From Parcubacteria group bacterium (GTDB lineage: Bacteria > Patescibacteriota > Minisyncoccia > Moranbacterales > UBA11712), in assembly GCA_041659685.1 (NCBI GenBank), contig JBAZXV010000003.1, positions 2,040-66,039 on the forward strand: a DNA stretch of 64,000 bases, read 5' to 3'. The notes beneath the pieces were generated by a model. It ran no database searches. It was not told where the DNA came from and worked only from the letters and a program-made list of their open reading frames with translations. Made by a program: the position numbers and the translations under genes. Below, piece after piece: positions 821-36,603 of this stretch (positions are counted from its first letter, which is position 1; the number at the start of each line of letters is the position of its first letter).

Positions 821-1801
821 ATGAAAAAGGTTACATACGGCGTTGCTGGCTGTGGCGAACATGCGCTTCGGGCGCATGTTCTTCCGGGAAAAGATATTCC
901 GGAGCTCGAACTGAATGGCATTTGCGACATCAATCCGGACAACCTTGCCCGTTTTTGCGAAAATTTCGGAGGCGGCCTGACGAGTTACAGCAGCATCGAA
1001 AAACTGCTGGCCGCACCGGACCTCGACGCGGTTCTGATTGCCACGCCGGACGAGTTCCATCTCGAGCAGCTGCGTTTGGCGATCGGCGCCGGAAAGCACG
1101 TATTGATCGAAAAGCCGCTGGCCGTCAAACACGCCGACCTCGAAGACCTGGATTGTCTCCTTCGTTTGGCGGCTTCTCGCGGCCTCGTCGTCACTACCTG
1201 CCATCCGCGGCGCTTTGACCCGCCGTTTACGTGGATTAAAAACCGAATGGGGACCGCCATCGAGGAGCTCGGACCGGTCGCCTCATTCAATTTCGATTTC
1301 TCCTACCACCGGCCCGAAGCCGCGTGGAAAGCCAGCCGGAGTTTGCTGCTGGATCATCTCAACCATGAGATTGATCTGGTGCACTATATTCTCGGCATCA
1401 CATCTTTCGATGCGGAAATGGTCTCTGATTCGTTCGACCATTACCGTGTCACGGGACAGCGGGACGACGGAATCTTCCTGAATTTCCACGGCACTCGCCG
1501 TTTGGAAAGCAAGGTCTATCTCGAGTCGCTGGTCCTTCGCCACGACCGCGGCGAAATAAGGATCGATGCCCACTCCGGTTCCGCCGTAATAGCCAACCAT
1601 GAAACCGGTGAAACCCATGTCCGGGACTGTGGGATGACCGACTATTATATCCGGTCTCTCCGCATCATGCGGAATTTTGTGGAAACGATCCAAGGCGTCT
1701 CCGAGAATTACCTGACGCCTCAGGACCTGTGGGTGAACAACTGGCTGGGAACAACTCTCAAGGAATATGGACACGCCAAGTTCAGCCTGGAGCCCATGTA
1801 A
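821..1801 (+). CDS. Gfo/Idh/MocA family NAD(P)-dependent oxidoreductase
   Basis: The N-terminal Rossmann region (GVAGCGEHALRAHV..DAVLIATPDEFH..EKP) is typical of the family. A strong SD (AAGGAGA) precedes the ATG and a rho-independent hairpin follows at about 1830-1872. Confidence 0.88.
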   Translation: MKKVTYGVAGCGEHALRAHVLPGKDIPELELNGICDINPDNLARFCENFGGGLTSYSSIEKLLAAPDLDAVLIATPDEFHLEQLRLAIGAGKHVLIEKPLAVKHADLEDLDCLLRLAASRGLVVTTCHPRRFDPPFTWIKNRMGTAIEELGPVASFNFDFSYHRPEAAWKASRSLLLDHLNHEIDLVHYILGITSFDAEMVSDSFDHYRVTGQRDDGIFLNFHGTRRLESKVYLESLVLRHDRGEIRIDAHSGSAVIANHETGETHVRDCGMTDYYIRSLRIMRNFVETIQGVSENYLTPQDLWVNNWLGTTLKEYGHAKFSLEPM

Positions 1802-1829
1802 GGTTCGAATTGACTCAAAGGAGACACTC

Positions 1830-1872
1830 AGCGGCGGTGAGAAATCAGCTTTACCTCTCACCGCCGTTTTTC
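1830..1872 (+). terminator. rho-independent terminator after the oxidoreductase gene
   Basis: GC-rich inverted repeat cggcggtgag...ctcaccgccg followed by TTTTT. Confidence 0.7.
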
Positions 1873-1934
1873 TATCCTGAAAAAATTTTCTGAGAATATT
1901 TAAATTTCTTCCCAACCAAAAATTAGAATTTAAT

Positions 1935-2040
1935 AAAACGCCCTGAACGGGCGGCTTTCTGTTTTCATGCCTAGGCTTGCCCGGAAAAACAGGAGTGATA
2001 AGATTAAGAAATGAAATAGAGGCTTCTGCGGAGGCTTTTG
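1935..2040 (+). repeat. composite intergenic repeat, long form: hairpin+T-run, CTTGCCCGGAAAAACAGGAGTGATAAGA core, degenerate double palindrome
   Basis: Shares the ..TTGCCCGAAA..GGAGTGATAGGATAAA..AGAGGCTTCT..GAGGC.. consensus with copies at 3193, 4585, 5655, 6600, 7925 and 36530. Confidence 0.7.
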
Positions 2041-2058
2041 TCCCCTATCGAAAAATAT

Positions 2059-3186
2059 ATGAAAAAGGAACCAACAATTGAAAATTTGGGCTGGGATGCC
2101 TTTTTTGAAGCGGGCCGGGCGAAGCTTGGACTGGGCGCTTTTCGGGTTGCGCGGGTGATTGCCGAACATCGAGGCGCCTATAAAGTCAAAAATGCCGAGG
2201 GTGAATATTTGGCCAGAATAACCGGTAAACAAATTTTCGACGCGAAATCGCGGGAAGATTATCCGGCCGTCGGCGATTGGGTCGCCATTTCCGAAGCTGG
2301 CGGGCGGCAGGCCGTCATCCGGGCAGTTTTGCCGAGAAAGACAATAATCAAAAGAAAGTATGGCGATAAAAATAAAACTGGTGAAAAAGATGAAACTCAA
2401 ATCATCGCCACGAATATTGATGTGGCGTTTGCCGTCGAATCGGTCGACCGGGACTATAACCTGAACCGCCTGGAAAGATATTTTGCCATCGCCCGGGACG
2501 GCGGAATAAATCCTGCCGTAGTACTCAATAAAATAGATTTGATTTCCAGTGAAGAATTAAACTCAAAGCTTGTCCAAATAAAAAACAGGTTCAAAAATAT
2601 TGATGTCATTCCTGCCAGCGCTTTCAATGACGAAGGACTGGCTGATTTGAAAGGATATTTAAAAAAAGAAAAAACCTATTGCTTCCTCGGCTCGTCGGGT
2701 GTCGGAAAATCATCCCTCATCAACAAACTGCTGGGAGAAGATATCCTAAAAACCGAAAATATCGGGGAACGTTCCGGCAGGGGCAAACACGCGACAACCG
2801 GCCGGGAAATGTTTTTCTTACGGGAGGGCCCCGACGCTACGGCCGGGGCAGGCGCCATTGTGATTGATAATCCCGGAGTGCGAGAAGTGGGAATGACGGA
2901 CACAGGCGCCGGAGTCGGCGATGTATTTCAGGAAATAACCGCTCTCGGAAGAGACTGCAAATATGCCGATTGCACGCACGTCCATGAACCGGGCTGCGCG
3001 GTTCTCGGCGCAGTCAAAGCGGGCCGGCTGGATGAAAGCCAATACGCGAATTATATCAGCCTCAAAAAAGAAGCTGAGCATTTTGAAATGACCGGATTTG
3101 AGAAAAAAGAAAAAAACCGCCAGTTCGGAAAGTTTTTGAAAAAAGCGAAAAAGGAATTGAGAGACGCTGGACATAAGGATTATTGA
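2059..3186 (+). CDS. rsgA: ribosome small-subunit-dependent GTPase A (circularly permuted GTPase RsgA/YjeQ)
   Basis: Circularly permuted G motifs (NKIDL ... GSSGVGKSSLIN ... DNPG) are present. A C-terminal Zn-finger-like CxHxxEPGC motif is also present. The ATG at 2059 is preferred over the TTG at 2038. Confidence 0.88.
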   Translation: MKKEPTIENLGWDAFFEAGRAKLGLGAFRVARVIAEHRGAYKVKNAEGEYLARITGKQIFDAKSREDYPAVGDWVAISEAGGRQAVIRAVLPRKTIIKRKYGDKNKTGEKDETQIIATNIDVAFAVESVDRDYNLNRLERYFAIARDGGINPAVVLNKIDLISSEELNSKLVQIKNRFKNIDVIPASAFNDEGLADLKGYLKKEKTYCFLGSSGVGKSSLINKLLGEDILKTENIGERSGRGKHATTGREMFFLREGPDATAGAGAIVIDNPGVREVGMTDTGAGVGDVFQEITALGRDCKYADCTHVHEPGCAVLGAVKAGRLDESQYANYISLKKEAEHFEMTGFEKKEKNRQFGKFLKKAKKELRDAGHKDY

Positions 3187-3192
3187 ATCATT

Positions 3193-3250
3193 TTGCCGAA
3201 AAAAACAGGAGTAATAGAAAGAAAATAGAGGCTTCTATGGAGGCCTCTAA
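3193..3250 (+). repeat. composite intergenic repeat, long form, ending in AATAGAGGCTTCTATGGAGGCCTCTAA
   Basis: Same consensus as the other long-form copies and the same + orientation. Lies immediately 3' of rsgA. Confidence 0.75.
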
Positions 3251-3477
3251 ATATTTCCTAAGGTTAAACTTTAGAAAACGCTAGACTTGACTTTTACTGG
3301 TTAAAAGTGTATCTTTCCAAATCAAATTTAGACATTGATTTTGATCCTGTTTTCCTTCAGAACGCAAGATTTGCGTTTTGCGCGGTATACGGGATCGCTC
3401 CTGCATATCCTGCCAGTCGCCCGGCGGGGTGGTCCTCGCAGACCATCAAAAAAAGTTCTTTGCAAGAGGAGATTACC

Positions 3478-4449
3478 ATGCAAGAAGATTTTATTTCGCG
3501 GATTCAGGGCTTCACTGACCTTCCGGATCGAGGCATGGAAGCGGTTGTTCAAAGAATGGAATACCCTTTCCTGCTTCACGAAATTTTCATTCCTGGTTGT
3601 TCCGCGCAGGATGAAGCGAAGTCCATAAAGGACCAATTGCTCCCTGCTATTTACTTCTATATGGAAAACTGGCTGCCTCTGGCACTCGATAAGGGGAAGA
3701 AGATCCAAGATGTCTATCGGCATTTTTTTGACTTCCCCCTGGATTTCGAAGTGGAAAAAGTATACTTGAAAGTTGTCCAGGGCAAAGAGTATTGCGACAT
3801 CCATGTTCTTCTGAATAATTCCAGCCTCCAGGTGAAGAGGTTCGGCAATTGTCTCGGAATTAGGATAGTCTCTGAGAACTCCAAAAAGGATCCGCATGGA
3901 ACCGGCACGGCAATCTTGGAACAATTTACGAAAAATACTTCCTCGCCGGTGGCAAATTTTTGGCACAGTGCCGATTTCATTGTCCCATTGCTGAGGCGTC
4001 ACAGAGAACCTTTCTCGGTGATTATTGATCTGGATGAGACATACATCCGCCTCGTGAAATCCTGTCCATTCGTGAAATGGATTCCTTTCCCGGAATTCGC
4101 CAAAATCATTGATGCCTACAAGACGAAAAAATCCGTGTTAGCGGGAAAATGTCAGGGCATCTCGATAATGGCGGAATTTATCCATTATACTAACGATGAG
4201 ATTGTGAAGTCAGAGGTGTATCGGAGAGGAAATGTCAGGAATTTCGAGGATTTCCTGGTCACTTTTTCTCGCGGCGATGACCTCTGCCTCAAGATCACGG
4301 CCAATAGCGGCCTTCCGAAGAACAGCTTTTCGACGAATGTCGCTTTGGACCTGGATGTGAGTAATCTGCAATCCGTCCTGAAAGACGTTGCGTCGATGCT
4401 CTATTTTCAATTGTCGGCGCAGACGCTCAACGATCGCCAGAGAAAATAG
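3478..4449 (+). CDS. hypothetical protein
   Basis: Long ORF. The internal ATG at 3478 has an AGGAGA SD, whereas the upstream part of the track ORF overlaps repeat sequence. No recognisable domain. Confidence 0.6.
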   Translation: MQEDFISRIQGFTDLPDRGMEAVVQRMEYPFLLHEIFIPGCSAQDEAKSIKDQLLPAIYFYMENWLPLALDKGKKIQDVYRHFFDFPLDFEVEKVYLKVVQGKEYCDIHVLLNNSSLQVKRFGNCLGIRIVSENSKKDPHGTGTAILEQFTKNTSSPVANFWHSADFIVPLLRRHREPFSVIIDLDETYIRLVKSCPFVKWIPFPEFAKIIDAYKTKKSVLAGKCQGISIMAEFIHYTNDEIVKSEVYRRGNVRNFEDFLVTFSRGDDLCLKITANSGLPKNSFSTNVALDLDVSNLQSVLKDVASMLYFQLSAQTLNDRQRK

Positions 4450-4524
4450 CCGTCAGGCGCGAGAAATTGAGACGTTCACTCCCGCCCGATCGACGGCTTC
4501 CGAGCCACTAGCCCAAAGAAAAAA

Positions 4525-4650
4525 GACGGCGCGTTGCCTATCGTGGACGCGCCGTTTTTCAATGGAGAAATAATATTTTCACCCCTGGCTTGCCCGAAAA
4601 AAACAGGGGCGATATGATAAAGGAATGAATTAGAGGCTTCTGTGAAGACC
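4525..4650 (+). repeat. composite repeat: terminator-like hairpin (GGCGCGTTGCCTATCGTGGACGCGCC+T5), CAATGGAGAAATAATA, long-form core
   Basis: Near-identical to 6559-6685 and related to 7882-8006. Confidence 0.75.
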
Positions 4651-4654
4651 TGCA

Positions 4655-4870
4655 AAAAAATCGACGCTGAATCCTTGGCAAGGTTCAATCTTAACGAAGT
4701 ATTATTTTCCAAACTTAGCATTTTGATACGGCCGTGGGAAAATGCTAAGTTTGGAAGAAATGAAAATGAAGGAGAAATGCATCAAAGGAATGGCTGAGAT
4801 AGCCATTATTTTGTTCATCTCCCCCGACTTTTCCCGAAAAACAGAGATTTCTGCAGAGGCTTTTATTCTG
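4655..4870 (+). repeat. 220-bp repeat unit containing a long hairpin (16-bp stem CCAAACTTAGCATTTT/AAAATGCTAAGTTTGG, 14-nt loop) followed by a degenerate long-form core
   Basis: A second copy lies at 36374-36603 with about 85% identity. Small ORFs inside (4742..4936, 36395..36601) are not conserved in frame. Confidence 0.75.
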
Positions 4871-5005
4871 AATTTAAAAAACAGCGCCGAAAGCGTTGTT
4901 TGTGAATTCCCAGAAGCTGATGCGGATTTAAAATAATATTTTTACTGCGGCCTATAAGTCCTCATTTATTTTGAAGCTGCCCGGCGCGACAATCCGCACC
5001 GGGCG

Positions 5006-5491
5006 CTACAGTCCAAAAACCGCTTTTCTGCCCGCCCGGGAAAAGGCGGCAAAGGTATAGAAAAATGCATCCGCCACCATAGTCCCCGCGACTATGCCCC
5101 AGAATAGATCCCCAATGATATGCGGGAAAAATGAGAGGCAAAACGGGCGAATAACGGTAATATCCAAGAATTCCCCTGTCCCGAAGTCACAGATCACATT
5201 TCTGAAACTCCTGAAAAAAATTCCCGGATATGATCGAAGGTTGCCCCTGCTTCCCTTCCCGAGCCGATGAATATAGACGGCCAGCTCTTGAAGTGAAACG
5301 GCGGAGTAGAAAAAAATAAAATCAGCGCCATTCCCGGCTTCCGCGATAACCAGCCAGTGAGCGTTCCTCATTGTGTAGACGCCCCAGGCCGTGCCCAAAT
5401 ACGAGCACAGTTGGCCGAAAAGAAAATTCTTCGACCAGTATTTTGCCGCTTTCCTGGCCGACGAGAATACTCTCTTCATTTCCCCTCCCAT
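5006..5491 (-). CDS. hypothetical membrane protein
   Basis: 161-aa ORF with hydrophobic segments (FWGIVAGTMVADAFFYTFAAF). No competing ORF. Function unknown. Confidence 0.45.
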   Translation of the reverse strand: MGGEMKRVFSSARKAAKYWSKNFLFGQLCSYLGTAWGVYTMRNAHWLVIAEAGNGADFIFFYSAVSLQELAVYIHRLGKGSRGNLRSYPGIFFRSFRNVICDFGTGEFLDITVIRPFCLSFFPHIIGDLFWGIVAGTMVADAFFYTFAAFSRAGRKAVFGL

Positions 5492-5654
5492 GGCCTCTTA
5501 TTGAGAGGCAATCAGAATATTTTTTCTCCCGTGTTTAAAGGAACTTCTTTCTTATTCTCCGCTTCAACTGATTTGGCAGGCTACACCTAAAAATGCCTTC
5601 TGTCAATCTGGTTTACGCTCATTTGCCTCTCGCGGATGGTTTTTGTGTTTTTTC

Positions 5655-5700
5655 CACCCCGCCCTTGCCCGAAATACGAGGAGTGATAGGATGAAATAAA
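5655..5700 (+). repeat. long-form repeat core without the double palindrome (CCCTTGCCCGAAATACGAGGAGTGATAGGATGAAATAAATG)
   Basis: Matches the consensus of the long-form family. Confidence 0.65.
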
Positions 5701-5754
5701 TGATTTTAAGGTTCAACCTTAGCGAGGCGTTATTTTTAAGTAATTTATTCTTTA

Positions 5755-6536
5755 TGGGCGATCATCTCAAAAAAATTTCGAAACTGAAAAAATTAAATTT
5801 TGCGGCAAGGCAAAATTTTCATTTTGATAAAAAAAGAGCTGAGAAGTATGAAAACGCTCATGATTACAGGACGAGAACTTTTGATTGGATGGCTAAAACA
5901 ATCAGACCCTGTTTAGCCCAAGCTGAATCCGCCCTTGATGTAGGAACTGGTACCGGCGACTTGGTGAGATCAATAAAAATAAAGGGCGTTTTTACCGGCT
6001 TGGATGTCTCAAAGAATATGTTGGATGTCGCAAGAAAAAAGTGCTCTCATGGCAATTTTGTTCTTGGCAACGCCTATTCCCTGCCCTTCGATGACGAAAG
6101 TTTTGAAGTGGTGATCTACAAATATGCCCTGCATCATCTCAAAAGGCCCTTAAACTCGCTTATCGAGGCATTCAGAGTCATGAAGAATAATGGCCAAGTT
6201 ATCATTGCAGATGTGGCATCGTTTAAAAATAAATCGCATCACTCTATTTTCAAAAAGCTAAACAGCCTCAGGGAGCCGGCGAATTACGAATATCGAACCA
6301 TCGAAACAATACTCAGATTATTGGATAAAGCTGGTTTCAAAAAAGCCAGGATCGTAAAAAAGGATTTTAATTTGATTTTAGAAGATTGGCTGAATCATTT
6401 CTATGAACCTGAAAAAACAATAAACCTGGTCTTAGATTCGCCGATCTCATTCAAAGAGGTTATAAGGTTGAAATCTTTATCGAACCAAAAACATCAAATA
6501 ACACTTACATCCTTTGTCGTTACGGCAAAAAAATAA
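5755..6536 (+). CDS. class I SAM-dependent methyltransferase (Methyltransf_11-like)
   Basis: Motif I LDVGTGTGDL is present, with an acidic motif II/post-I pattern. The start is uncertain (5700, 5755 or later) because the 5' end overlaps a repeat. Confidence 0.75.
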
Positions 6537-6558
6537 ATTGCCAATAAAATTTATCGAT

Positions 6559-6685
6559 ACGGCGCGTTGCCTATCGTGGACGCGCCGTTTTTCAATGGAG
6601 AAATAATATCTCCTCTCCCCCCTTGCTCGAAAAACGAGAAGTGGTAGGATAAATGGATAAATAAAGAGAGACTTCTATAAAAAAT
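6559..6685 (+). repeat. composite repeat: terminator-like hairpin, CAATGGAGAAATAATA, long-form core, degenerate palindrome
   Basis: Near-identical to 4525-4650. Confidence 0.75.
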
Positions 6686-6695
6686 TAACAAAGTA

Positions 6696-7193
6696 ATGAA
6701 AAAAATTTTAGTCACAGGAAATGCCGGCGCCGGAAAAAGCACTTTTAGTCAAAAGCTTGGGGAAAAGTTGAAAATGGAAGTGCATGGTCTCGACAAAATT
6801 GTTTGGCGGCCGGGCTGGAAAAAAACTCCCGACAATGAAAAGAAAGAACTGATCAAAAAGATTACGGACGGAGAAGAGTGGATTATAGACGGTGTGTCTC
6901 AAGATGTTTTCAATGAAGCGGAGGTTGTCATCTTTTTAGATTTTCCAAAGAGAGTTTGTTATTGGAGAGTATTTAAGCGCAATTGGAAATATTTATTTTC
7001 TTCGCGACCGGGGCTTCCAGAAAATTGCCCCGAAATATTGATCATGAAACGGCTCGCGCTGATCATCTGGAAATTTCACAAAAATTATCGTCCGAACCTA
7101 TTGTCCGAAATGAAAAAGCATGAGCAAGCCAAAATAATAGTCCATATTAATTCAAATAAACTGCTGGAGGATTTTCTCTCGCAGGCCGGTTAA
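6696..7193 (+). CDS. P-loop NTPase, adenylate-kinase-like (topology modulation protein-like)
   Basis: N-terminal Walker A motif GNAGAGKST. Size and pattern match the small AAA/adenylate-kinase-like family. Confidence 0.75.
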   Translation: MKKILVTGNAGAGKSTFSQKLGEKLKMEVHGLDKIVWRPGWKKTPDNEKKELIKKITDGEEWIIDGVSQDVFNEAEVVIFLDFPKRVCYWRVFKRNWKYLFSSRPGLPENCPEILIMKRLALIIWKFHKNYRPNLLSEMKKHEQAKIIVHINSNKLLEDFLSQAG

Positions 7194-7397
7194 TTTTCAA
7201 TAAGATCCGAGGCATATTCCTCAAATAAATCTTCAAAAGCAAGGTTTTATGCCTTGTTTTTTGTTTTCTGGTTAAACTTGACTTAATTATAAAAATATGC
7301 TTAAATATAGTGTTATCTTCCCATTCGGGAGGCTAGCCTCTGCCATAAGCAAATATGGTATTATCCCAATACAATAATAATCCCGGAGGGTAATTCC

Positions 7398-7838
7398 ATG
7401 AACTGGAAACTGAAATTAGTCTGCAGCTGGGCATTGGTTCTTTCATTGTTTGTAACAATCATCCTGCATTGCACCATCTTTATGGTCACCGCAATGGGGC
7501 TGCAGGAAGGTAGTTATTGGGAAACACGCACCGGCGAAATTCGGGGTGAAACCGTCGACTATCGCGTCGAGCTTCGGCAGCTGATCGCCAAAAAGTGTAT
7601 CCGATACGGATATGAACTTCGGGTTATCAGCCAGGTGATCGAGCTCGTTCCCAAAGGCGGGTCCGGCGAAACTATTGTCGGACACGACTTCGAAGGCAAC
7701 GGCTCCTGGAAGCTGGCTGTCTATCATGAGGCAACTGAAGTTCCTGGGAGTAAATTTTCGGCCATCAACGGTGCCATCGAGGCCCGGAAATTGATCGGCC
7801 AAGCTGTAAAAATTCTGCCTGCCCAGCCCCTGATCTAA
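7398..7838 (+). CDS. hypothetical membrane-anchored protein
   Basis: N-terminal TM segment. A TTGACT..N17..TTAAAT promoter-like sequence lies at about 7280-7310. Confidence 0.5.
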   Translation: MNWKLKLVCSWALVLSLFVTIILHCTIFMVTAMGLQEGSYWETRTGEIRGETVDYRVELRQLIAKKCIRYGYELRVISQVIELVPKGGSGETIVGHDFEGNGSWKLAVYHEATEVPGSKFSAINGAIEARKLIGQAVKILPAQPLI

Positions 7839-7881
7839 GGGCAAGAAGTTCTGGATAAGAATTATGCACTTTCGAAAAAAG

Positions 7882-8006
7882 AACAGCGCGCTGCCTATTC
7901 GGACGCGCTGTTTTCATTTGCCGAAATTCTATTTCACTCCCGCCCTCGCCCGAAATATGAGGAGTGGTAGGATAAAAGGAATAGAGGCTTCTATAGAGGC
8001 CTCTGA
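7882..8006 (+). repeat. composite repeat: hairpin+T-run, long-form core, AATAGAGGCTTCTATAGAGGCCTCTGAA
   Basis: Same family and the same orientation. Confidence 0.75.
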
Positions 8007-8102
8007 ATTTTTACCAGGATGATTCATCTATCAACTGCCGAAATATTGCTTGATTTTCAAGGCAAAAGAGAGTAGTTTGAGAAAAACCGTCAGCACAAAC
8101 CT

Positions 8103-9065
8103 ATGGCTCAAAAATCAAGCCTTCTGGCCATTCTCAAGGCAATCATCATGGTTATCTTCCTACCGATTACTTTGATTTGGATTGTTTGGAAAAAGACCGA
8201 CTGGGAAAAAAGAAACAAATGGATCGCAACCGCCGCTGTCGTGGTTGTTTTTTTGTTCATGATCCCGTCCGATGAGAAAAAAGATCCTGTTGAGCAAAAA
8301 GCGGCTACGCAAGCAGAAAATCAAGTCCGAAGCGAGAATCAATCAACTGAAACTGTTGCGACAGAAGTGGAGCAACTTGCCGGCGATCAGAAAGAAGAAA
8401 TGCAAAAACCGGAAGGAGAAATATTCAAAGTGGCTCACGTTGTTGACGGCGACACAATCAAACTCGAGAACGGCCAAGTGGTGCGATATATTGGAATTGA
8501 TACTCCGGAAACAGTCGATCCCAGAAAACCGGTGCAATGTTTTGGAAAGGAAGCGAGCTCCAAAAACAAAGAGCTGGTCGAAGGAAAAGAGGTGAGGCTC
8601 GTGAAAGATGTTTCCGAAACTGACAAATATGACCGGCTTCTCCGGTATATTTATGTCGGTGATATTTTCGTGAATGATTATCTCGCGCGAAACGGCTTTG
8701 CCAAATCTTCGACTTATCCGCCGGATGTGAAATATCAGGAACAATTCAAAAAAGCCGAAGAAGAAGCGAGAATCAATAAGCGGGGCCTATGGGCCGAAGG
8801 CGCTTGTCAAACCGAAACCGCACCCGAGGAAAAAACTCCAGCCTCATCCCCCGCCCCGTCGACCCAGGCTCCGGCACCAGCGAGCGTGACCGCACCCGTT
8901 CAATCGACGACTCCAAGCTCAACCGGAACTTTTGCCTGCAACTGCTCGAAAACCTGTCCTCAAATGAGCTCCTGCGCCGAAGCTCAATATCAGCTCAATG
9001 TCTGCGGCTGCACGAGAAGAGACGCCGACCACGACGGCATCGCCTGCGACGCGGATTGCCAGTGA
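8103..9065 (+). CDS. membrane-anchored thermonuclease (SNase family) with C-terminal Excalibur Ca-binding domain
   Basis: SNase motifs (VVDGDTIKL, RYIGIDTPE, DRLLRYIYV) are present. The N-terminus has a TM helix. The C-terminus has a Cys-rich DxDxDGxxC Excalibur signature (DADHDGIACDADC). Confidence 0.85.
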   Translation: MAQKSSLLAILKAIIMVIFLPITLIWIVWKKTDWEKRNKWIATAAVVVVFLFMIPSDEKKDPVEQKAATQAENQVRSENQSTETVATEVEQLAGDQKEEMQKPEGEIFKVAHVVDGDTIKLENGQVVRYIGIDTPETVDPRKPVQCFGKEASSKNKELVEGKEVRLVKDVSETDKYDRLLRYIYVGDIFVNDYLARNGFAKSSTYPPDVKYQEQFKKAEEEARINKRGLWAEGACQTETAPEEKTPASSPAPSTQAPAPASVTAPVQSTTPSSTGTFACNCSKTCPQMSSCAEAQYQLNVCGCTRRDADHDGIACDADCQ

Positions 9066-9114
9066 TTGATTCCTAAGGGTCAACTTTCGGAGAGGTTAAG
9101 GTTTTGAATAAAAA

Positions 9115-9894
9115 ATGATTAAACGCTTTTTTGATAAAATAATTATCATCATTCTTATCCTTGAAATAAGTTGGTTTATTTTTATTTATTCCCATAATAG
9201 TACTCTTATTCAAGATATTTTAAAAAACATAAAAACGGATGCGTGGACTGCCATAGGGACTATATTTTTGGGCATGGTAGCATTACTTACGTTTTTCTAT
9301 GACAGATATAAAAATAGAAGAGCAAAAGTATCTATGTTAATTAACACCGTTCCGCCTGACTGTCATCAAATCGAACTTACCAATTCAAAAACTGGAGAAT
9401 TTATTTCGCAAAGTATCTATATAAGAATAAGAGTTGAACACATAGGAGGAAATTCTGCCGAAGATGCCGAAATAATGGTTTCAAATTTTTGGATTGTTAA
9501 TGATCATGGGGGGAAAATTGTAAAAAAAGCCTTTCTTCCGATGAATCTCACATGGAGTCATTTTGGCGGAAAAAAAAGGAGCGTACCCCGAGGACTATTT
9601 AGATACTGTGATTTTGGAAGATTTCAACCAAAATATACAAATAATACCCATACTATATTGCGGCTAGACACTGCAGTCCAACCCAATAGAGTGAGCGACG
9701 GTGAAATTCCCAATGTTATCGAGCCCGGAAAATATGAATTCGAGCTTATTCTTAGCGGCGTAAATTCAAATTTCATAAGAAAAAGATGGATTTTAGAGTT
9801 TAAAAAAAATTGGAGCGATGATGAAAGCGAAATGCTTAATGAACATATAATAATAAAGGAGAGAAAATGGTATAATTTTTTTGCGAATATTTAG
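9115..9894 (+). CDS. hypothetical membrane protein (2 N-terminal TM helices) in an AT-rich island
   Basis: Very AT-rich ORF. Its stop is 3 nt from the start of the next gene (operon). Confidence 0.55.
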   Translation: MIKRFFDKIIIIILILEISWFIFIYSHNSTLIQDILKNIKTDAWTAIGTIFLGMVALLTFFYDRYKNRRAKVSMLINTVPPDCHQIELTNSKTGEFISQSIYIRIRVEHIGGNSAEDAEIMVSNFWIVNDHGGKIVKKAFLPMNLTWSHFGGKKRSVPRGLFRYCDFGRFQPKYTNNTHTILRLDTAVQPNRVSDGEIPNVIEPGKYEFELILSGVNSNFIRKRWILEFKKNWSDDESEMLNEHIIIKERKWYNFFANI

Positions 9895-9897
9895 AAT

Positions 9898-10416
9898 ATG
9901 GACAAAGAAAAAATTATTCAGCCACATGCCAGAGGCGAATATGATAAACTTAATGATTGCTATGAGGGGTTAGCTCAAAAAGTGACAGACTCATTGAATG
10001 AAACAGAAATTGGGATTTATTCTGATTGTTTTTTGCTTCATGCTAGAAATTTAATTGATTTTTTGTGCAATAAAGAGAAAAAAGACTATTTCAAGTGTCC
10101 AAAATGTAAATTACATATTTCAAGAGGCTATACACCCGATGATGTGGTTGCATCTGATTTCTTCTGCGATAAAAATCCACCCTCGAAAAAAACAGATATC
10201 CTTACCGAAGCAGAATATGACAGAATTAATAAACAACTTTCTCATATAACCCGTGCACGTTTGAAAGGTCAAATTAATTTTTTTGATGAAAGAAAATTAT
10301 TTGAAAGTATCTTTAATAATATTAAGGACGAATTGAAAAATTTTGATCAAAAAATAAATCAAGAATACGATTCATTGAAAGCCCGAGACTTAAGAATAAT
10401 TGACAGAGAATCTTAA
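9898..10416 (+). CDS. hypothetical protein, possibly HEPN-like (CxxC plus R-x6-H motif)
   Basis: 172-aa ORF translationally coupled to 9115..9894. Contains CPKC and RINKQLSH (Rx6H) motifs. The HEPN assignment is an inference only. Confidence 0.5.
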   Translation: MDKEKIIQPHARGEYDKLNDCYEGLAQKVTDSLNETEIGIYSDCFLLHARNLIDFLCNKEKKDYFKCPKCKLHISRGYTPDDVVASDFFCDKNPPSKKTDILTEAEYDRINKQLSHITRARLKGQINFFDERKLFESIFNNIKDELKNFDQKINQEYDSLKARDLRIIDRES

Positions 10417-10426
10417 AAAATTAAAT

Positions 10427-10455
10427 AAAATAGAACTTCTATAGAGTCTCCCAAG
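10427..10455 (+). repeat. degenerate copy of the double-palindrome repeat (AAATAGAACTTCTATAGAGTCTC)
   Basis: Similar to the TAGAAGCTTCTATAGAGGCCTCTA family. Confidence 0.55.
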
Positions 10456-10596
10456 TTTCAATTTGAGCGAAGCACGAGTGAAAAGCAGTTTTTTTGACTA
10501 TTTAGATCTTCTGTGGTAGCCTTTTTCGCTAAAAGTAGGTTACTGCATTAAGCGTATAAATTATTAAGATAGTATCAATTGTGATATAATAAAACT

Positions 10597-11205
10597 ATGT
10601 TTGATGACAGAAAAGCGACACAATTACTGAATTATCTTGCACAAAAAGAAGGTGGCAAGATTAACTTCTTAAAGTCGATGAAACTTGTTTATCTCATTGA
10701 TAAGTTTCATTTGAGAAAATACGGCAAAACAATTACAGGCGACCTTTATTATGCAATGAGTAAGGGTCCAGTTGCTTCAAATACTAAAGATATTTGCAAG
10801 TATATACTTCGAGATGATATGGACTATGGAAAAAATGACTATTATGACAAATACATAAAAAAAGGTCGAGTAAAGTTTACTCTTCAATCTATTCAACAGC
10901 CCGACCTTGAGTATTTCTCCGAAGTAGAGATTGAATCTATAGATGCGGTATATGAACAATTCAAGGGTTTCAGCGGTTTTAAATTAGTTGACATTACTCA
11001 CGACACATTTGAATGGAAATGCAAAAGTGAATTTTTAAAAAAAGGAGCCTTGAGAGAGCAAATGAGGTTAAGTGATTTTTTAATCGATCAAAGATATTCT
11101 GAAAGAAGCCCCTTAAGAATATTCAATACAACAAAAACTGATTTAGAAAGGGTTTCAAAAACTTATGATCTAATTAGAAATACTCGGCTGTCTTGTGAAT
11201 GTTGA
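10597..11205 (+). CDS. Panacea-domain (DUF4065 / SocA-like) protein, putative PanA antitoxin
   Basis: N-terminal region LLNYLAQKEGG..KLVYLID..YG..ITGDLYYAMSKGPV matches the DUF4065 signature (KL.Y.....G......A...GPV). Confidence 0.72.
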   Translation: MFDDRKATQLLNYLAQKEGGKINFLKSMKLVYLIDKFHLRKYGKTITGDLYYAMSKGPVASNTKDICKYILRDDMDYGKNDYYDKYIKKGRVKFTLQSIQQPDLEYFSEVEIESIDAVYEQFKGFSGFKLVDITHDTFEWKCKSEFLKKGALREQMRLSDFLIDQRYSERSPLRIFNTTKTDLERVSKTYDLIRNTRLSCEC

Positions 11206-11214
11206 TTGAATACT

Positions 11215-11673
11215 ATGAAGCGCATCAAGCAGATTGAAGAAGAAATTACTAAGGGTGTTGGTGCAGTTTTCAGATTCATAAACCCAGAATATTCAACGAG
11301 CATTCACCACTTTAAAATTCTTATAGGTATTGATAAATCGAAAGCAAAAGATGTTTTGCTTTTTCTAACCTGCACCTCAAAAAGTATTGTGATGAGAAGC
11401 TATGTGTTGATAAGTAATGTATTAATTATAAATAAAGATGAATATTGCGAATTAAGTGAAGAAACCTCAATTTTATGTAATGATATTGAAACTGTAAATA
11501 TTGATGACCTAGTTGGAAAATATCTCTCAGATTGCGAATTTAAGGTTTGCGAACGAATTAGTGATGATTTGTTAATTCGCATTTACCAAGTTATAAAAGA
11601 TTCGAGAGAGGTTAGCAAAAAACATAAAAAAATTATAAGAAAAAATTTGAACCAGAAAGGGATCATTGATTGA
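11215..11673 (+). CDS. hypothetical protein, candidate cognate toxin of the upstream Panacea antitoxin
   Basis: The ORF begins 10 nt after the stop of 10597..11205. No recognisable domain. The role is inferred from gene-pair architecture. Confidence 0.5.
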   Translation: MKRIKQIEEEITKGVGAVFRFINPEYSTSIHHFKILIGIDKSKAKDVLLFLTCTSKSIVMRSYVLISNVLIINKDEYCELSEETSILCNDIETVNIDDLVGKYLSDCEFKVCERISDDLLIRIYQVIKDSREVSKKHKKIIRKNLNQKGIID

Positions 11674-11700
11674 CGTTGCACAATTAATTCGAAACTATTA

Positions 11701-11778
11701 ACGGCCCGTAAGGCCTGTTTTTCTTTTTTTATGACTCTGTTAAAATGAAATAGAAGCTTCTATAGAGGCCTCTAAAAG
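11701..11778 (+). repeat. composite repeat: GGCCCGTAAGGCC hairpin + T-run, CTCTGTTAAAATGAAA, double palindrome
   Basis: Near-identical to 17322-17390. Confidence 0.75.
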
Positions 11779-11801
11779 TTTCAAATTATAGATTTTTAAA
11801 T

Positions 11802-12410: not shown

Positions 12411-12446
12411 TTGATTTGGATAGTGATAAAATAAAAGAAGAAATTT

Positions 12447-13463: not shown

Positions 13464-13487
13464 TTTTCTTTGCAAAAAATAATCAAG

Positions 13488-13512
13488 GTAGAAGCTTCTA
13501 TAGAGGCCTCTA
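13488..13512 (+). repeat. double-palindrome repeat TAGAAGCTTCTATAGAGGCCTCTA
   Basis: Perfect copy, two adjacent 12-bp palindromes. Confidence 0.8.
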
Positions 13513-13542
13513 GGAAAATAAGATATGAGAAATAAGAAATAA

Positions 13543-13580
13543 CCCCAGTTGAATGATGCGACAGAGTCGCAATTCAACGG
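13543..13580 (+). promoter_or_regulatory. about 15-bp-arm inverted repeat (GTTGAATGATGCGAC/GTCGCAATTCAAC) abutting the RBS of the small AbrB-like gene
   Basis: Seen directly. A related IR lies upstream of the decayed copy at 20630-20663. Confidence 0.5.
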
Positions 13581-13591
13581 AGTAAAAAAAT

Positions 13592-13762
13592 ATGGCTGAG
13601 AAAAAAGGTATAATCAAGCTTAAGAAAGCGAGTGCGTATAGTTTTTCCGTGACCATCCCGAAAGAAATCATCGAGAAATATAAATGGAGGGAAAAACAAA
13701 AGCTGGTCGTCACCGACAAAGGCCGCGGGAAGATAGAGATCAGCGATTGGCGGAGGAAGTGA
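13592..13762 (+). CDS. small AbrB/MazE/SpoVT-like (looped-hinge helix) DNA-binding protein, multicopy family
   Basis: 56 aa, below the ORF-track cutoff. Motif SFSVTIPKEIIEKY...DKGRGKIEISDWRR resembles the swapped-hairpin AbrB fold. A paralog lies at 18396..18575. Confidence 0.6.
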   Translation: MAEKKGIIKLKKASAYSFSVTIPKEIIEKYKWREKQKLVVTDKGRGKIEISDWRRK

Positions 13763-13820
13763 TCTTGGATAGAAAAACACTTTATTGCAAAAACACCGAA
13801 ATATAATATAATGCTTATAT

Positions 13821-14414: not shown

Positions 14415-14418
14415 ACTT

Positions 14419-15938: not shown

Positions 15939-16091
15939 ATTTGATTCAGTTATGGTATAACAACTTATACGGAAAGACTGCGATTGATCGGCTCATGTCT
16001 GTTATTTTAGCACAACCGCGTCGCAATACAATTATACATAAGACTAATAATATTATAAAATACGGACAATACTGTTAAACTTCGTTAAGGC

Positions 16092-16124: not shown

Positions 16125-16129
16125 GGTTG

Positions 16130-17321: not shown

Positions 17322-17390
17322 ATTGCCTGTTTTTCTTTTTTTGCGGCTCTGTTAAAATGAAATAGAAGCTTCTATAGAGCCCTCTATGAT
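17322..17390 (+). repeat. composite repeat: GCCTGTTTTTCTTTTTTT, CTCTGTTAAAATGAAA, double palindrome
   Basis: Near-identical to 11701-11778. Confidence 0.75.
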
Positions 17391-18333: not shown

Positions 18334-18359
18334 AATAGAAGCTTCTATAGAGGCCTCTG
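18333..18359 (+). repeat. double-palindrome repeat
   Basis: AAATAGAAGCTTCTATAGAGGCCTCTGAAG. It overlaps the TAA stop of the upstream gene. Confidence 0.8.
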
Positions 18360-18395: not shown

Positions 18396-18575
18396 ATGAC
18401 TGAGAAAAAAGGCGTCCACAAGCTTAAGAAATCGAGCGCGTATAGTTTCTCCGTGACCATCCCCAAAGAAATCGTCGAAAAATACGGCTGGAAAGAGAAG
18501 CAAAAGCTGGCAGTCATCGACAAAGGCCGCGGCGTCGTCGAGATCCGCGACTGGCGGAAGAGGCAATTCAAATAG
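18396..18575 (+). CDS. small AbrB/MazE/SpoVT-like protein, second copy
   Basis: 59 aa, about 70% identical to the 13592..13762 product. Confidence 0.6.
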   Translation: MTEKKGVHKLKKSSAYSFSVTIPKEIVEKYGWKEKQKLAVIDKGRGVVEIRDWRKRQFK

Positions 18576-18604: not shown

Positions 18605-19876
18605 ATGAAAGAGAAATTGAATAAACTCTACCGCGAGACTTTTTCTTCACTGGCAAATCGTAATTTCCGTTTGTATTTCATCGGACAAAGCATTTCAATG
18701 ACTGGCTATTTCATGCAAGGAATTGCTCTTGCCTGGCTTGTCCTCAAAATCACAAACTCGGGCACCGCTCTGGGATTCGCCGTATCTTTGCAATATGCGC
18801 CCATGCTCGTGCTGGGGCCTTGGGGTGGAATGATCGCGGATCGTTTTTCCAAGCGCGTCCTTCTTATTATAACCAAAGCGGTCTTCGGCATTCTGGCTTT
18901 TTTGCTGGGCATCCTTGTCCTCACGGGGACGATCCAAATTTGGATGATTTATCTTTTGAGTCTGGCCGTTGGAATTGTGGGTCTGATTGATAGCCCCGCC
19001 TATTATGCTTTCGTTTCCGAACTGGTCGAGGGACATGAAGTTAAGAATGCCGTCACGCTCAACGCTAGCATGATAAATTTGACCAGAGTTGCCGGACCGG
19101 CATTGGCCGGCATTCTGATCGCCACAGTCGGAATCGCTCCCTGCTTCCTTCTCAACGGCGCTTCTTATATTGTCATCATTGTTGCCCTTCTTCGCATTAA
19201 AAAGGATGAGCTTCAAAAAATTTCACCGCTCGTCAAATCAAAAGGAATGGTTTGGGAAGGTTTTCGCCATGTGATGTCAAAACCTGTCCTTGCCAGTACA
19301 GTTGTCATGATTGCGATAATCGGCACACTTACCTATGAATTTCCAGTGAGCTTGGCGCTGTTTGCCAAGACTACATTTCATGGCAGTGCTGGCGGCTACG
19401 CTGCCTTGACTGGAGCTCTCGGGCTGGGATCTGTTCTCGGGGGACTTTTTCACGCCAGACGAAAAATTAAAAGTTCAAGCACGCTGGCAATGGCCGCACT
19501 CATATTCGGTTGCTCTGTCATTTTTGCGTCTTTTATGCCAACTTTAGTTTTAGCGGCGGGTGTTATGACACTGGTCGGAGCGTGTTCCATTTGGTTTGCC
19601 ACCCTCGCCAACACGACTTTGCAGCTCAATAGCGATCCGCAGCTCCGTGGAAGGGTCATGGTGCTTTGGTCAATGTCTTATCTCGGCTCCACGGCTATCG
19701 GCGGTCCGCTGATCGGCTGGATCGGCGAACACACTGGTCCGCGGTGGAGTTTGGCCGTCGGAGGATTGGCAGCGATTGTCGCCGCGGCCTTGGGATTTAT
19801 TATTATACGCAATCAGAAACGCCTGCCTGCAGTAACCGAAGCAGAAACCACATCCAATCTCTATAAAACAAAATAG
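18605..19876 (+). CDS. MFS transporter (EntS/YbdA-like, 12 TM)
   Basis: Typical MFS N-terminal pattern and multiple TM segments. The TAG stop lies inside a double-palindrome repeat. Confidence 0.88.
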   Translation: MKEKLNKLYRETFSSLANRNFRLYFIGQSISMTGYFMQGIALAWLVLKITNSGTALGFAVSLQYAPMLVLGPWGGMIADRFSKRVLLIITKAVFGILAFLLGILVLTGTIQIWMIYLLSLAVGIVGLIDSPAYYAFVSELVEGHEVKNAVTLNASMINLTRVAGPALAGILIATVGIAPCFLLNGASYIVIIVALLRIKKDELQKISPLVKSKGMVWEGFRHVMSKPVLASTVVMIAIIGTLTYEFPVSLALFAKTTFHGSAGGYAALTGALGLGSVLGGLFHARRKIKSSSTLAMAALIFGCSVIFASFMPTLVLAAGVMTLVGACSIWFATLANTTLQLNSDPQLRGRVMVLWSMSYLGSTAIGGPLIGWIGEHTGPRWSLAVGGLAAIVAAALGFIIIRNQKRLPAVTEAETTSNLYKTK

Positions 19877-19898
19877 AAGTTTCTATGGAGGCCTCCGG
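19871..19898 (+). repeat. double-palindrome repeat (AAATAGAAGTTTCTATGGAGGCCTCC)
   Basis: Family member. It supplies the stop codon of the MFS gene. Confidence 0.75.
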
Positions 19899-19933: not shown

Positions 19934-20623
19934 ATGCGAGAAATATTCAAAGGGATTGTAAAGAATTTTAAAAGAACCGGCGTGCTACAAGAGGATGTCG
20001 CAATATTTTTAAGAATGCATGATTGTGAAGACACCATAAAACATGTTAATACTGTTGCTGAGGAAGCAAAAATATTGGCATCCCGTTTTTTTGAAAGCCA
20101 GGAAGACGCCTTTTCTGCGGGACTGCTTCATGATGTCAGCGTTTTGTTTCCCGAAGAGGATCGATTGAAGATTGCGAATGAACTCAAAATCGATGTTTTG
20201 CCGGAGGAAAAAATTTATCCGGCCATTCTCCACCAAAAAATTTCTCAAGTTATGGCTCGAGAAATTTTTGGAATTACGGATGAAAATGTTTTGAACGCAA
20301 TCGGTTGTCACACCACTCTCAAGGAAAATGCATCGGTTTTGGATAAAATTGTTTTTATATCCGATAAAATAAGGTGGGACCAGAAATATGATGCGCCTTT
20401 CAAGAGCGATGTTTCAAAAGCTTTGGATATTTCATTGGATGAATCCTGTTTTTGTTATTTGAATTATCTGTGGAACAGAAAAGAAAGTCTTGCGGTTGTG
20501 CATCCATGGATGGCAGCTGCCTACAGACAGCTGGGTAATGATTTAAAAAAATTCGGATTTAGTTTGATATATAATGATGATGGCAAAATAGAAGCTTCTA
20601 TGGAGGCCTCTAATAAAAATTAA
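19934..20623 (+). CDS. HD-domain protein, YqeK-like (bis(5'-nucleosyl)-tetraphosphatase family)
   Basis: H..V...A..LA.RF ... LLHDV ... YHT ... ISDKI pattern is typical of YqeK HD hydrolases. The 3' end reads through a double-palindrome repeat at 20586-20612. Confidence 0.72.
   Translation: MREIFKGIVKNFKRTGVLQEDVAIFLRMHDCEDTIKHVNTVAEEAKILASRFFESQEDAFSAGLLHDVSVLFPEEDRLKIANELKIDVLPEEKIYPAILHQKISQVMAREIFGITDENVLNAIGCHTTLKENASVLDKIVFISDKIRWDQKYDAPFKSDVSKALDISLDESCFCYLNYLWNRKESLAVVHPWMAAAYRQLGNDLKKFGFSLIYNDDGKIEASMEASNKN
20586..20612 (+). repeat. double-palindrome repeat inside the 3' end of the HD gene
   Basis: AATAGAAGCTTCTATGGAGGCCTCTAATAA. Confidence 0.75.
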
Positions 20624-22475: not shown

Positions 22476-22503
22476 AATAGAAGCTTCCATGGAGGCCTCT
22501 AAA
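22476..22503 (+). repeat. double-palindrome repeat followed by a terminator-like hairpin
   Basis: AAAATAGAAGCTTCCATGGAGGCCTCTAAATT, then CCAGCTCGAGCCGGCTGG+T6 at 22505-22535. Confidence 0.75.
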
Positions 22504-36373: not shown

Positions 36374-36603
36374 ACAAAAATCGACGCTGAATCTTTGCTA
36401 AGGTTCAATCTTAGCAAAGTATTATTTTCCAAACTCAGCATTTTTATACGGCCGTGGGAAAATGCTAAGCTTAAAAGTATGGAGAAGAGATGCATCAAAG
36501 GAACGACTGAAGCAGAAGTTTTTTTGTTCCCCTCCCCCGACTTTGCCCGAAATATGAGGAGCGGTAGGATAAAAAATAGAAGCTTCTATGGAGGCTTCTA
36601 AGG
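36374..36603 (+). repeat. second copy of the 220-bp long-hairpin unit + long-form core + double palindrome
   Basis: About 85% identical to 4655-4870 / 4585-4650. Confidence 0.75.

Follow-up and report, generated by a model that had tools for sequence, protein, structure and literature searches.

What are the repeated sequences that occupy almost every intergenic space near the start of a contig from a Parcubacteria group bacterium (Moranbacterales; assembly GCA_041659685.1, contig JBAZXV010000003.1)? The stretch analysed, referred to here as the window, comprises 64,000 nucleotides (nt) of this contig, and all positions are counted from its first letter. A sequence-only reading had described six copies of one four-part unit, at 1935, 3193, 4525, 5655, 6559 and 7882, and had taken them for non-autonomous mobile or structured-RNA elements. 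Repeats are present at all six positions, but they are not six copies of one unit: judged by their sequence, they are mosaics of four modules, namely a predicted intrinsic terminator, an A/T-rich linker, a sigma-70-type extended −10 promoter and two 12-bp palindromes, which together form an array. Here, we argue that the arrays are operators for a small AbrB-like repressor, placed at the transcription start, and that copies with a flanking U-run may also terminate transcription; we put the probability of this reading at roughly 0.55. A conserved terminator/promoter architecture, which the sequence-only reading had named as the alternative to its own proposal, combined with a putative protein-binding array, is closer to the evidence. 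To our knowledge, gene control is almost unknown in the candidate phyla radiation (CPR, or Patescibacteria), few members of which can be cultured, and a literature search found no publication with the motif or tying AbrB-type proteins to CPR repeats.

The double palindrome consists of two contiguous 12-bp palindromes, TAGAAGCTTCTA and TAGAGGCCTCTA (together TAGARGCYTCTA; 24-mer form, TAGAAGCTTCTATAGAGGCCTCTA). The window holds ten good and four degenerate copies, every one on the + strand, with zero expected; a search for the 23-nt core with up to three mismatches returned 14 matches, made up of ten + strand sites and four palindromic echoes on the − strand, and none in 100 shuffles. They cluster in one island and are absent from 37-64 kb. 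Most had been missed earlier (10431, which is degenerate, 11751, 13489, 17363, 18336, 19874, 20589 and 22478), and the units described earlier do not all carry one: intact double palindromes lie at 3226 and 7982 and degenerate ones at 2017 and 4631, a single poor unit is left at 6666, and at 5706 a different hairpin takes the place of the palindrome. Of the other parts said to belong to each unit, the terminator hairpin is missing at 3193 and present elsewhere, and the linker CAATGGAGAAATAATA occurs at 4561 and 6594 and nowhere else, the 7882 copy having a diverged linker. What holds is that the units form a family of dispersed repeats, as opposed to ordinary, unique intergenic sequence. The segments 4526-4601 and 6559-6634 share 89% identity, which extends through the stem and loop of the terminator; metagenome contig L092 carries the complete composite next to other genes; and the modules recur in related metagenome-assembled genomes (MAGs) at orthologous and at other sites. 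The near-identity of terminator, linker and promoter between 4526 and 6559, like that of the L092 composite, would be explained by whole-cassette duplication or gene conversion.

The terminator and promoter modules are of a few recurrent types. T1 stands for three near-identical G+C-rich hairpins (4525, 6559 and 7883), folding at −18 to −22 kcal/mol, in which U5 follows directly after the stem as in an intrinsic terminator; the simpler terminator-like hairpins at 1939 and 5619 are likewise followed by a U-rich tail or U-run. Relative to 4526, the T1 stem at 7883 carries a compensatory change of G-C to A-U pairs, from ACGGCGCG/CGCGCCGT to ACAGCGCG/CGCGCTGT. P1 (TTGCCCGAAA..GGAGTGRTAGGATAAA), with seven copies at 1977, 3193, 4590, 5665, 6623, 7946 and 36543, is laid out as TTGCCC, about 13 nt and the extended −10 element TGnTAGGAT, and has four strict matches in the window against none in shuffles. 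P2 (CTGTTTTTCTTTTTTTATGACTCTGTTAAAATGAAA) combines a U-run with the extended −10 element TGtTAAAAT and precedes the palindrome at 11713 and 17325. In the lineage of the window, the array starts 4-12 nt 3' of the −10 element (TGaTAGGAT in P1, TGtTAAAAT in P2), and we infer from these sequences that P1 functions as a promoter. As a side observation, the −35 region of P1, CCCTTGCC, can pair with the promoter spacer (CAGGGG/CGAGGAG) in a weak hairpin of −9 to −12 kcal/mol at 4585-4612, 7939-7968 and other copies.

Related arrays are widespread in the CPR. The motif family was defined by a metagenome scan that allowed any base at the variable positions, which matched at least 120 DNA stretches; all array counts outside the window rest on these and are counts among the matches listed, the loci found in this way carry L numbers, and their gene neighbours were assigned by crude open reading frame (ORF) calling. 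The wide CPR family, TAGAnGCnTCTA, forms arrays of two to three units, with at least 140 arrays found. Exact motif matches in species-representative genomes come almost all from Moranbacteria/Moraniibacteriota and Parcubacteria MAGs, and two public fragments match parts of the window at 100% identity. A 56-aa protein of the window is likewise identical to one encoded on a 150-kb contig of a Parcubacteria group bacterium MAG. Lone exact units are rare (the long loci and the window have five, compared with 81 arrays), and there is about one extra array per 20 kb. Within one mismatch, TAGA, GC and TCTA are kept in 180 arrays, these letters being fixed by the search pattern itself; only positions n5 and n8 were free, and these are lineage-specific (AAGCTT/AGGCCT, AGGCAT/ATGCCT, ATGCAT or ACGCGT). 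The extended −10 pattern TGnTAnnnT lies, across all loci, 2-22 nt 5' of 27 of 157 arrays, compared with 5.7% of random positions, an enrichment of about threefold.

Does this conservation reflect a hairpin or a DNA site? Among 147 distinct 24-mers, full complementarity at the variable positions extends across the 24-mer in 50 cases and holds within each 12-mer in 54, and 63 have it in neither way. The commonest array form, both in the window and elsewhere, has an A.C mismatch, folds at −8 kcal/mol and is no better than shuffles (z = −1.3), and direct-repeat forms such as TAGAGGCATCTA ×2 hardly fold at all (−4.1 kcal/mol). Since the variable positions are often unpaired and the commonest form folds poorly, the element that is kept is the half-site TAGAnG and not a particular hairpin. 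On this comparison, the array behaves as a sequence-specific site rather than a mere hairpin, and the pattern suggests that a symmetric protein dimer recognises each 12-mer. The variation of the double palindrome does not seem to follow RNA pairing, which lends no support to the proposal of a structured RNA, and Rfam gave no family match beyond chance-level hits, even at E ≤ 10, in 1800-8200 or 36200-36800.

A candidate for the binding protein is encoded beside the arrays. Two window genes code for proteins of 56 and 59 amino acids (aa) with a SpoVT/AbrB (MazE_antitoxin) domain, PF04014, both scoring above the Pfam gathering cut-off in a Pfam-type domain scan of 20 window ORFs; the NCBIfam AbrB domain match, at 19.2 bits, falls under its cut-off of 28.3. 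The AlphaFold2 (AF2) monomer has a pLDDT of 70, and the best Foldseek matches are SpoVT, MazE, AbrB-N and Sulfolobus/archaeal AbrB-like chromatin proteins, all with E > 0.4, as is expected because the domain has only 56 aa. A PDB sequence search with the protein gave no match. In the loci found by motif, an AbrB-like gene is the commonest neighbour of the arrays (gene counts were made by tblastn; greedy ORF calling favours antisense ORFs), and in 11 distinct cases, with differing n5/n8 variants, an array lies 18-105 nt 5' of it. To remove the ascertainment bias of the motif search, homologues were also gathered by protein search alone and the contigs of ten were fetched. TAGA-type units lie at most 130 nt upstream in five of the ten, and the four most divergent homologues have other arrays of 12-bp period directly upstream, namely (CGTACGTACG+2)×2, (GAACGTTC+4)×4, TGGTACGTACCA TAGTACGTACTA TAGTACGTACTA and (TACGnnCGTA+2)×3, none of which occurs again within its own locus. 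A palindromic array of 12-bp period is found upstream of nine of ten AbrB-like genes compared with five of 54 neighbouring genes (Fisher p = 3e-7); when TAGA-type arrays only are counted, the numbers are 5/8 and 5/36 (p = 0.009). In the protein alignment, IPKE, KY and DKGxG are invariant and residues 10-21 are variable. These residues, which precede the conserved IPKEI and which we take by homology to be the AbrB DNA-recognition loop, track the array type: SSA goes with R/Y, NSK/NTS with G,T/A,C, DSK with A,C/G,T, and xxH with non-TAGA arrays.

Conservation at orthologous genes ties the modules together. In front of rsgA, a −10-like element, an array, a short A-rich leader and the ATG are kept in five lineages whose coding DNA is about 69-73% identical, and P1 with its array is kept before the nuclease gene in L016. 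In L159 and L163, no array precedes rsgA; the L159 gene has a terminator and P1 and no array, its ATG lying 11 nt past the −10 element, and P1 would therefore be a promoter on its own and the array a separable addition at the transcription start.

Based on these observations, we propose that the unit is a modular punctuation between co-directional genes, with terminator, A/T-rich linker, extended −10 promoter and 12-mer array in this order. The intrinsic terminator would end the upstream gene, the promoter would rely on its extended −10 element, and each 12-mer would bind one dimer of the 56-59-aa SpoVT/AbrB protein (encoded at 13592 and 18396), with neighbouring dimers binding cooperatively. 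An occupied array would block open-complex formation or promoter escape, and the repressor would act on its own genes and on a mostly accessory set that includes those for RsgA, a secreted nuclease, an MFS transporter, an HD hydrolase, a Bro-N protein and others. Arrays with A- and U-runs on their flanks are common in other CPR lineages; the 10-16-bp hairpin of such arrays would double as an intrinsic terminator, a role that we regard as plausible for them.

The proposed system resembles, by analogy, AbrB/MazE-type autoregulation, and the geometry of its sites resembles the metbox arrays of MetJ. The SpoVT/AbrB autoregulators (AbrB, Abh, SpoVT, MazE and the AbrB-type VapB/PrlF antitoxins) share the domain of the window proteins; they are small dimeric DNA binders with palindromic or repeated sites at their own promoter, and usually repress near the transcription start. 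Unlike these, the window-type protein has 53-59 aa, lacks a C-terminal oligomerisation or toxin-binding part and has no conserved partner gene; its candidate sites are perfect 12-bp palindromes that adjoin one another in arrays of two to four, they have spread to many other genes in the Moranbacteria lineage, and the family is so far confined to CPR metagenomes. A type II toxin-antitoxin pair was rejected: the downstream gene differs at each site (an unknown P-loop protein, MFS, NUDIX, CN hydrolase, flavodoxin and others), and the protein stops right after the domain, without the toxin-binding C-terminal tail of an AbrB-type antitoxin. Metboxes are likewise contiguous short palindromes in spacerless tandem arrays, of two to five 8-bp units; each unit binds one MetJ dimer cooperatively, and lone units are non-functional. 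MetJ, however, has a ribbon-helix-helix fold, an 8-bp period and an enterobacterial distribution, so that the likeness lies in the mode of working and not in the family. CIRCE/HrcA offers conserved inverted repeats between the promoter and start codon of several operons, and CIRCE is a DNA operator that also affects the mRNA, but it is a single 9-N9-9 repeat, and its sequence, repressor family and regulon differ from those of the arrays. The units also recall the paired DNA uptake sequences (DUS) and Correia elements of Neisseria, which provide terminator hairpins of conserved sequence and intergenic repeats carrying promoter and terminator signals; in contrast to these, the units have a far lower density, no terminal inverted repeats or target duplications and no sign of an uptake role.

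The comparison yields a defined cis-element (TAGAnGCnTCTA arrays and their sister arrays of 12-bp period), a candidate 56-aa binder that is easy to synthesise, a predicted set of target genes, and the probable extended −10 promoter type and terminators of a Moranbacteria-like genome. If binding holds true, this would be among the first regulator-operator pairs for the CPR, and the proposal would account for intergenic DNA that is conserved more strongly than the genes of these genomes. A consequence for annotation is that such repeats should not be masked as mobile elements.

Several observations weigh against the arrays being operators. All window copies have the same orientation, which a symmetric dimer site does not require. 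A generic two-hexamer sigma-70 scan passes only one P1 copy (4590-4618), and the −35 element of P1 is weak, TTGCCC matching at 3/6. One AbrB-like gene, P0037, has no upstream array, and the AbrB-like genes of L016 and L139 directly follow another gene; moreover, the alternative arrays of the divergent homologues were identified after the fact, few homologues were ascertained by protein, and phylogeny confounds the co-variation of protein and array. By crude ORF calls, arrays lie in 70 tandem, 20 convergent and 6 divergent contexts and inside ORFs in 39 cases; about a quarter fall within long ORFs. The excess of convergent over divergent contexts fits terminators better, as do the many arrays that begin at, or a few nucleotides from, a stop codon or tRNA 3' end, and the A-run before and/or T-run after that 75 of 148 public arrays have. 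Finally, P2 with its array (64 nt, 11712-11775) is 97-98% identical to three copies in L011 although the genes are 73-79% identical, which is more than a promoter and operator would need.

Part of this evidence would suit a double palindrome that acts in RNA only, as a terminator where it has a U-run and otherwise as a stabiliser of mRNA ends, similar to REP sequences (repetitive extragenic palindromes) or Bacillus 5' stem-loops; the AbrB-like gene would then be a frequent neighbour merely through array-rich islands. The 24- and 36-mers do form 10-16-bp hairpins of −14 to −25 kcal/mol where the variable positions are G-C or G.U, a generic scan calls the window copies at 3226 and 7982 terminator-like, and one strand has an excess of G.U-compatible variants (97 of 147 observed, 58 expected), in addition to the convergent, stop-codon, tRNA and A-/T-run contexts noted above. 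Yet the commonest form folds no better than shuffles and the direct repeats barely fold, as described, and a hairpin does not need TAGA, GC and TCTA to be invariant across lineages. Of nine window arrays scored, eight lack a sense-strand U-run, 7982 being the one that has it, and the −10 element lies just 4-6 nt upstream, so that transcripts would begin within the 5' arm of the hairpin. The divergent AbrB-like genes, furthermore, own arrays that are found nowhere else in their loci. We therefore regard an RNA-only function as unlikely, although it fares better than the other alternatives.

A bolder version keeps the protein and changes its task: arrays and AbrB-like protein would jointly mark the limits of transcription units in CPR genomes, with the bound array stopping transcription of the upstream gene as a roadblock, or insulating that gene, and switching the gene downstream. 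At the shared 24-60-nt boundary, accessory-gene cassettes would be duplicated, lost and exchanged, which would make the island integron-like but without an integrase. We consider this quite improbable, and return to the junctions below.

Selfish short repeats that spread in intergenic DNA, with any regulation incidental, are a still less probable explanation. Such elements would be REP-like, like bacterial interspersed mosaic elements (BIMEs) or REP doublet hairpins (REPINs), or like miniature inverted-repeat transposable elements (MITEs). The units share with REP, BIME and REPIN sequences that they are short intergenic palindromes in modular composites at gene ends, with a potential for mRNA stabilisation or termination and with concerted evolution, as the lineage-specific n5/n8 variants suggest. 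Within the genome, copies are 89% identical over 76 nt and P2 with its array 94%; together with the P2 identity to L011, the copies inside ORFs (in frame as EASIEAS) and the arrays at junctions of differing gene content between relatives, this is what spreading repeats would produce. The arrays differ from REP-type elements, however, in being contiguous tandem units, tens rather than hundreds in number, conserved across genera and linked to an AbrB-like gene. No GTAG was seen, nor any transposase domain or RAYT-like ORF (a REP-associated tyrosine transposase) among the 20 window ORFs scanned, and with about one extra array per 20 kb the density is low; the REP/RAYT assignment was rejected accordingly. 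IMG/VR viral contigs gave no confirmed match of the AbrB-like family. The mobile-element proposal of the sequence-only reading is not supported either: the unit boundaries show no terminal inverted repeats or target-site duplications, the flanks being merely A-rich with no consistent duplication, and units stand at orthologous rsgA and SNase nuclease sites in L016 although the coding DNA is only about 73% identical. A MITE or other non-autonomous transposon was rejected since the unit ends, ACGGCGCG... and ...GAGGCCTCTA, are not mutual inverted copies and since the units are kept at orthologous sites. The in-ORF copies (L003 498-521, L014 5880-5903, and others in L004, L008 and L024, one of them in a DnaE-like ORF), which are read in frame as (I/L)EASIEAS within long ORFs of other MAGs, resemble in-frame insertions that are tolerated.

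It is highly doubtful that the arrays are crossover sites for the exchange of accessory cassettes, in the manner of an integron, by a site-specific recombinase or by short-homology recombination. All window copies point the same way, and they lie in a low-GC island whose accessory genes are unrelated to one another. Synteny with the relative JBAZYY01 breaks at the units: its rsgA unit is followed by different genes, and its MFS gene lies elsewhere. In L065, P2 is joined to the leader that trails the 13489 array in the window; remnants of AbrB-like genes lie at 16155 and 21937, and a 24-mer of 10-bp arms around a central TATA resembles recombinase core sites. The shared unit sequences may thus also be recombination junctions, but ordinary intergenic indels predict the same breakpoints and explain the data equally well. 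No recombinase gene was found in the annotated part of the window, and arrays also lie behind tRNAs and before housekeeping genes. An integron attC site was rejected as the 24-nt element lacks a correctly ordered RYYYAAC...GTTRRRY (attC sites have 57-141 nt) and no integrase was found among the scanned ORFs; an attC reading of the GTTGAAT...ATTCAAC hairpin failed on the wrong order of its core sites. TIGR arrays were set aside, the 12-mers having no spacers. That the 12-mer is a DNA-uptake signal of competent CPR bacteria, similar to DUS or uptake signal sequences (USS), is scarcely credible: CPR bacteria are naturally transformable, DUS/USS pairs form terminators, and the arrays offer terminator-like hairpins of conserved sequence and copies in genes, including the DnaE-like ORF, but DUS/USS occur about once per kb and arrays about once per 20 kb, on which density the reading was rejected, lone units are rare, every unit is palindromic, and the arrays are concentrated in one island with none at 37-64 kb.

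The 220-bp unit described earlier is indeed duplicated (4655-4838 and 36376-36552 are 82.6% identical over 184 nt, and 87% over 111 ungapped nt), and its perfect 16-bp stem with a 14-nt loop was found at 4709-4754. Both copies begin with AAAAATCGACGCTGAAT and an S-type hairpin (see below) and end in P1. Copy 1 lies directly 3' of a P1-array promoter (4590-4654) and is followed by a terminator-like hairpin at about 4879-4905; with a promoter before and a terminator-like hairpin after it, an RNA of about 280 nt would be transcribed. Copy 2 has no promoter in front and is followed by P1 and an array. Comparison of the two copies, the only ones that exist, shows one double change in 46 pairs and an outer stem that is broken in copy 2; a small ORF in the unit (4742-4936) was rejected, since a 7-nt indel breaks its frame in copy 2. 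No homologue was found in about 1 Mb of related loci (blastn, word size 7) or in Rfam. The unit is best regarded, from these comparisons, as an organism-specific segmental duplication of intergenic modules, and is possibly a small-RNA gene. The positions of all modules are given in Table 1.

Table 1. Modules, arrays and putative regulator genes in the window, ordered by position (T1, P1, P2: modules as defined in the text; S: recurrent hairpin CCTAAGGTTnAACCTTAG).
Feature	Position	Strand	Remark
Terminator-like hairpin CGCCCTGAACGGGCG with U-rich tail, behind upstream gene	1939..1966	+	−9.7 kcal/mol
P1 5' of rsgA: TTGCCC, 13-nt gap, TGaTAAGAT	1977..2004	+	Also before rsgA in L016, L039, L159
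Degenerate double palindrome TAGAGGCTTCTGCGGAGGCTTTTG, 18 nt 5' of rsgA ATG (2059)	2017..2040	+	
P1, weak copy (TTGCCG ... TAGAAA), no hairpin in front	3193..3220	+	
Double palindrome TAGAGGCTTCTA/TGGAGGCCTCTA	3226..3249	+	RNA hairpin −14.6 kcal/mol
S hairpin CCTAAGGTTAAACTTTAGAAAACGCTAG; L016 homology stops just past it	3257..3284	+	
T1, 9-13-bp G+C-rich stem, then U5	4525..4560	+	−22.3 kcal/mol, z −4.9
Linker CAATGGAGAAATAATA	4561..4576	+	
P1, TTGCCC-17-TATGAT	4590..4618	+	Passes sigma-70 scan
Degenerate double palindrome TAGAGGCTTCTGTGAAGACCTGCA	4631..4654	+	
220-bp unit, copy 1: S-like hairpin 4672-4700, 16-bp stem 4709-4754, decayed P1/palindrome remnant ~4826-4868	4655..4870	+	
Terminator-like hairpin with U-run	5619..5644	+	
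P1, TTGCCC ... TGaTAGGAT	5665..5692	+	
S hairpin TTAAGGTTCAACCTTAGCGAGGCG in place of double palindrome	5706..5729	+	
T1, second copy	6559..6593	+	
Linker CAATGGAGAAATAATA	6594..6609	+	
P1, TTGCTC ... TGgTAGGAT	6623..6650	+	
Single degenerate 12-mer GAGAGACTTCTA, array remnant	6666..6677	+	
T1 variant with compensatory stem changes	7883..7914	+	−19.2 kcal/mol, z −4.4
P1, TCGCCC ... TGgTAGGAT, 5' of SNase nuclease gene	7946..7973	+	Orthologous module in L016
Double palindrome TAGAGGCTTCTA/TAGAGGCCTCTG	7982..8005	+	
Degenerate array TAGAACTTCTA/TAGAGTCTCCC, 15 nt 3' of stop of ORF 9898-10416	10431..10454	+	
P2 (terminator U-run, TATGACTCTGtTAAAAT extended −10, GAAA) with double palindrome 11751-11774	11713..11774	+	97-98% to three L011 copies
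Double palindrome, 79 nt 5' of AbrB-like gene 1	13489..13512	+	
56-aa SpoVT/AbrB-domain gene, proposed array binder	13592..13762	+	PF04014, 29.1 bits (cut-off 24.7)
P2 with double palindrome 17363-17386	17325..17386	+	
Double palindrome, 3 nt past stop codon, 36 nt 5' of AbrB-like gene 2	18336..18359	+	
59-aa SpoVT/AbrB-domain gene, paralogue	18396..18575	+	PF04014, 28.4 bits
Double palindrome; first TAG is stop of MFS gene; 36 nt before HD-domain gene	19874..19897	+	
Double palindrome 5' of degenerate AbrB-like ORF (20672-20743)	20589..20612	+	
Double palindrome; TAG closes small ORF; canonical terminator next (22517-22540)	22478..22501	+	
220-bp unit, copy 2; outer part of long stem not maintained	36374..36540	+	
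P1, TTGCCC ... CGgTAGGAT	36543..36570	+	
Double palindrome, then ~150 nt non-coding to terminator (~36722-36750); no gene downstream on this strand	36577..36600	+	

Two further hairpins accompany the arrays. The S hairpin, CCTAAGGTTnAACCTTAG(CGAAGCG), recurs in the window at 3257-3284, 5706-5729, 17387-17414, 9069-9100, 4672-4700 and 36393-36419, and is also found in L092 (505-535) and L102. In relatives, it ends 6-8 nt 5' of a start codon and has AGGA in its 3' arm, and it may therefore mask the ribosome-binding site. A 5' untranslated region hairpin, CCCCAGTTGAAT..ATTCAACGGAG (−17 kcal/mol, z = −5.3), lies between array and start codon of AbrB-like genes at 13546-13581 and 20626-20657, and also in L011, L065 and L042; since GGAG lies in its 3' arm, its sequence suggests a second, translational layer of control.

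The region from 9000 to 22500 is a low-GC (0.30-0.41) accessory island of co-directional genes, encoding SocA/Panacea, RhuM+Fic, Bro-N and MerR-HTH proteins as well as several ORFs without a Pfam match, and its gene content is unlike that of the relative JBAZYY01. Besides the two intact AbrB-like genes, remnants of the last 15-20 codons are found at 16155-16200 and 21937-21983, and a degenerate full copy at 20672-20743, all of which indicate that duplication or rearrangement took place more than once in the 13-22 kb part of the island.

Other repeats were observed in the rest of the window. A hairpin family, TTTCCTAACATnnAATGTTAGGA, occurs at 554, 33531, 36344, 36645 and 52336; the 33531 copy abuts the ATG of ORF 33555-33932, and the one at 36344 is followed by T7 and is terminator-like. 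An intergenic module, GGAAATACTTACCGAGGTAAGTATTTGAATACGTAT, lies at 32110, 33441, 34966 and 52285, near genes on the − strand, and 36634-36699 and 52325-52390 are 97% identical over 66 nt. A tRNA/tmRNA scan of the window found nothing, and the only Rfam family in the window is the LOOT RNA (RF03000), which is present at full length at 38763-38894 on the − strand and scores 70.5 bits against a gathering threshold of 46.4.

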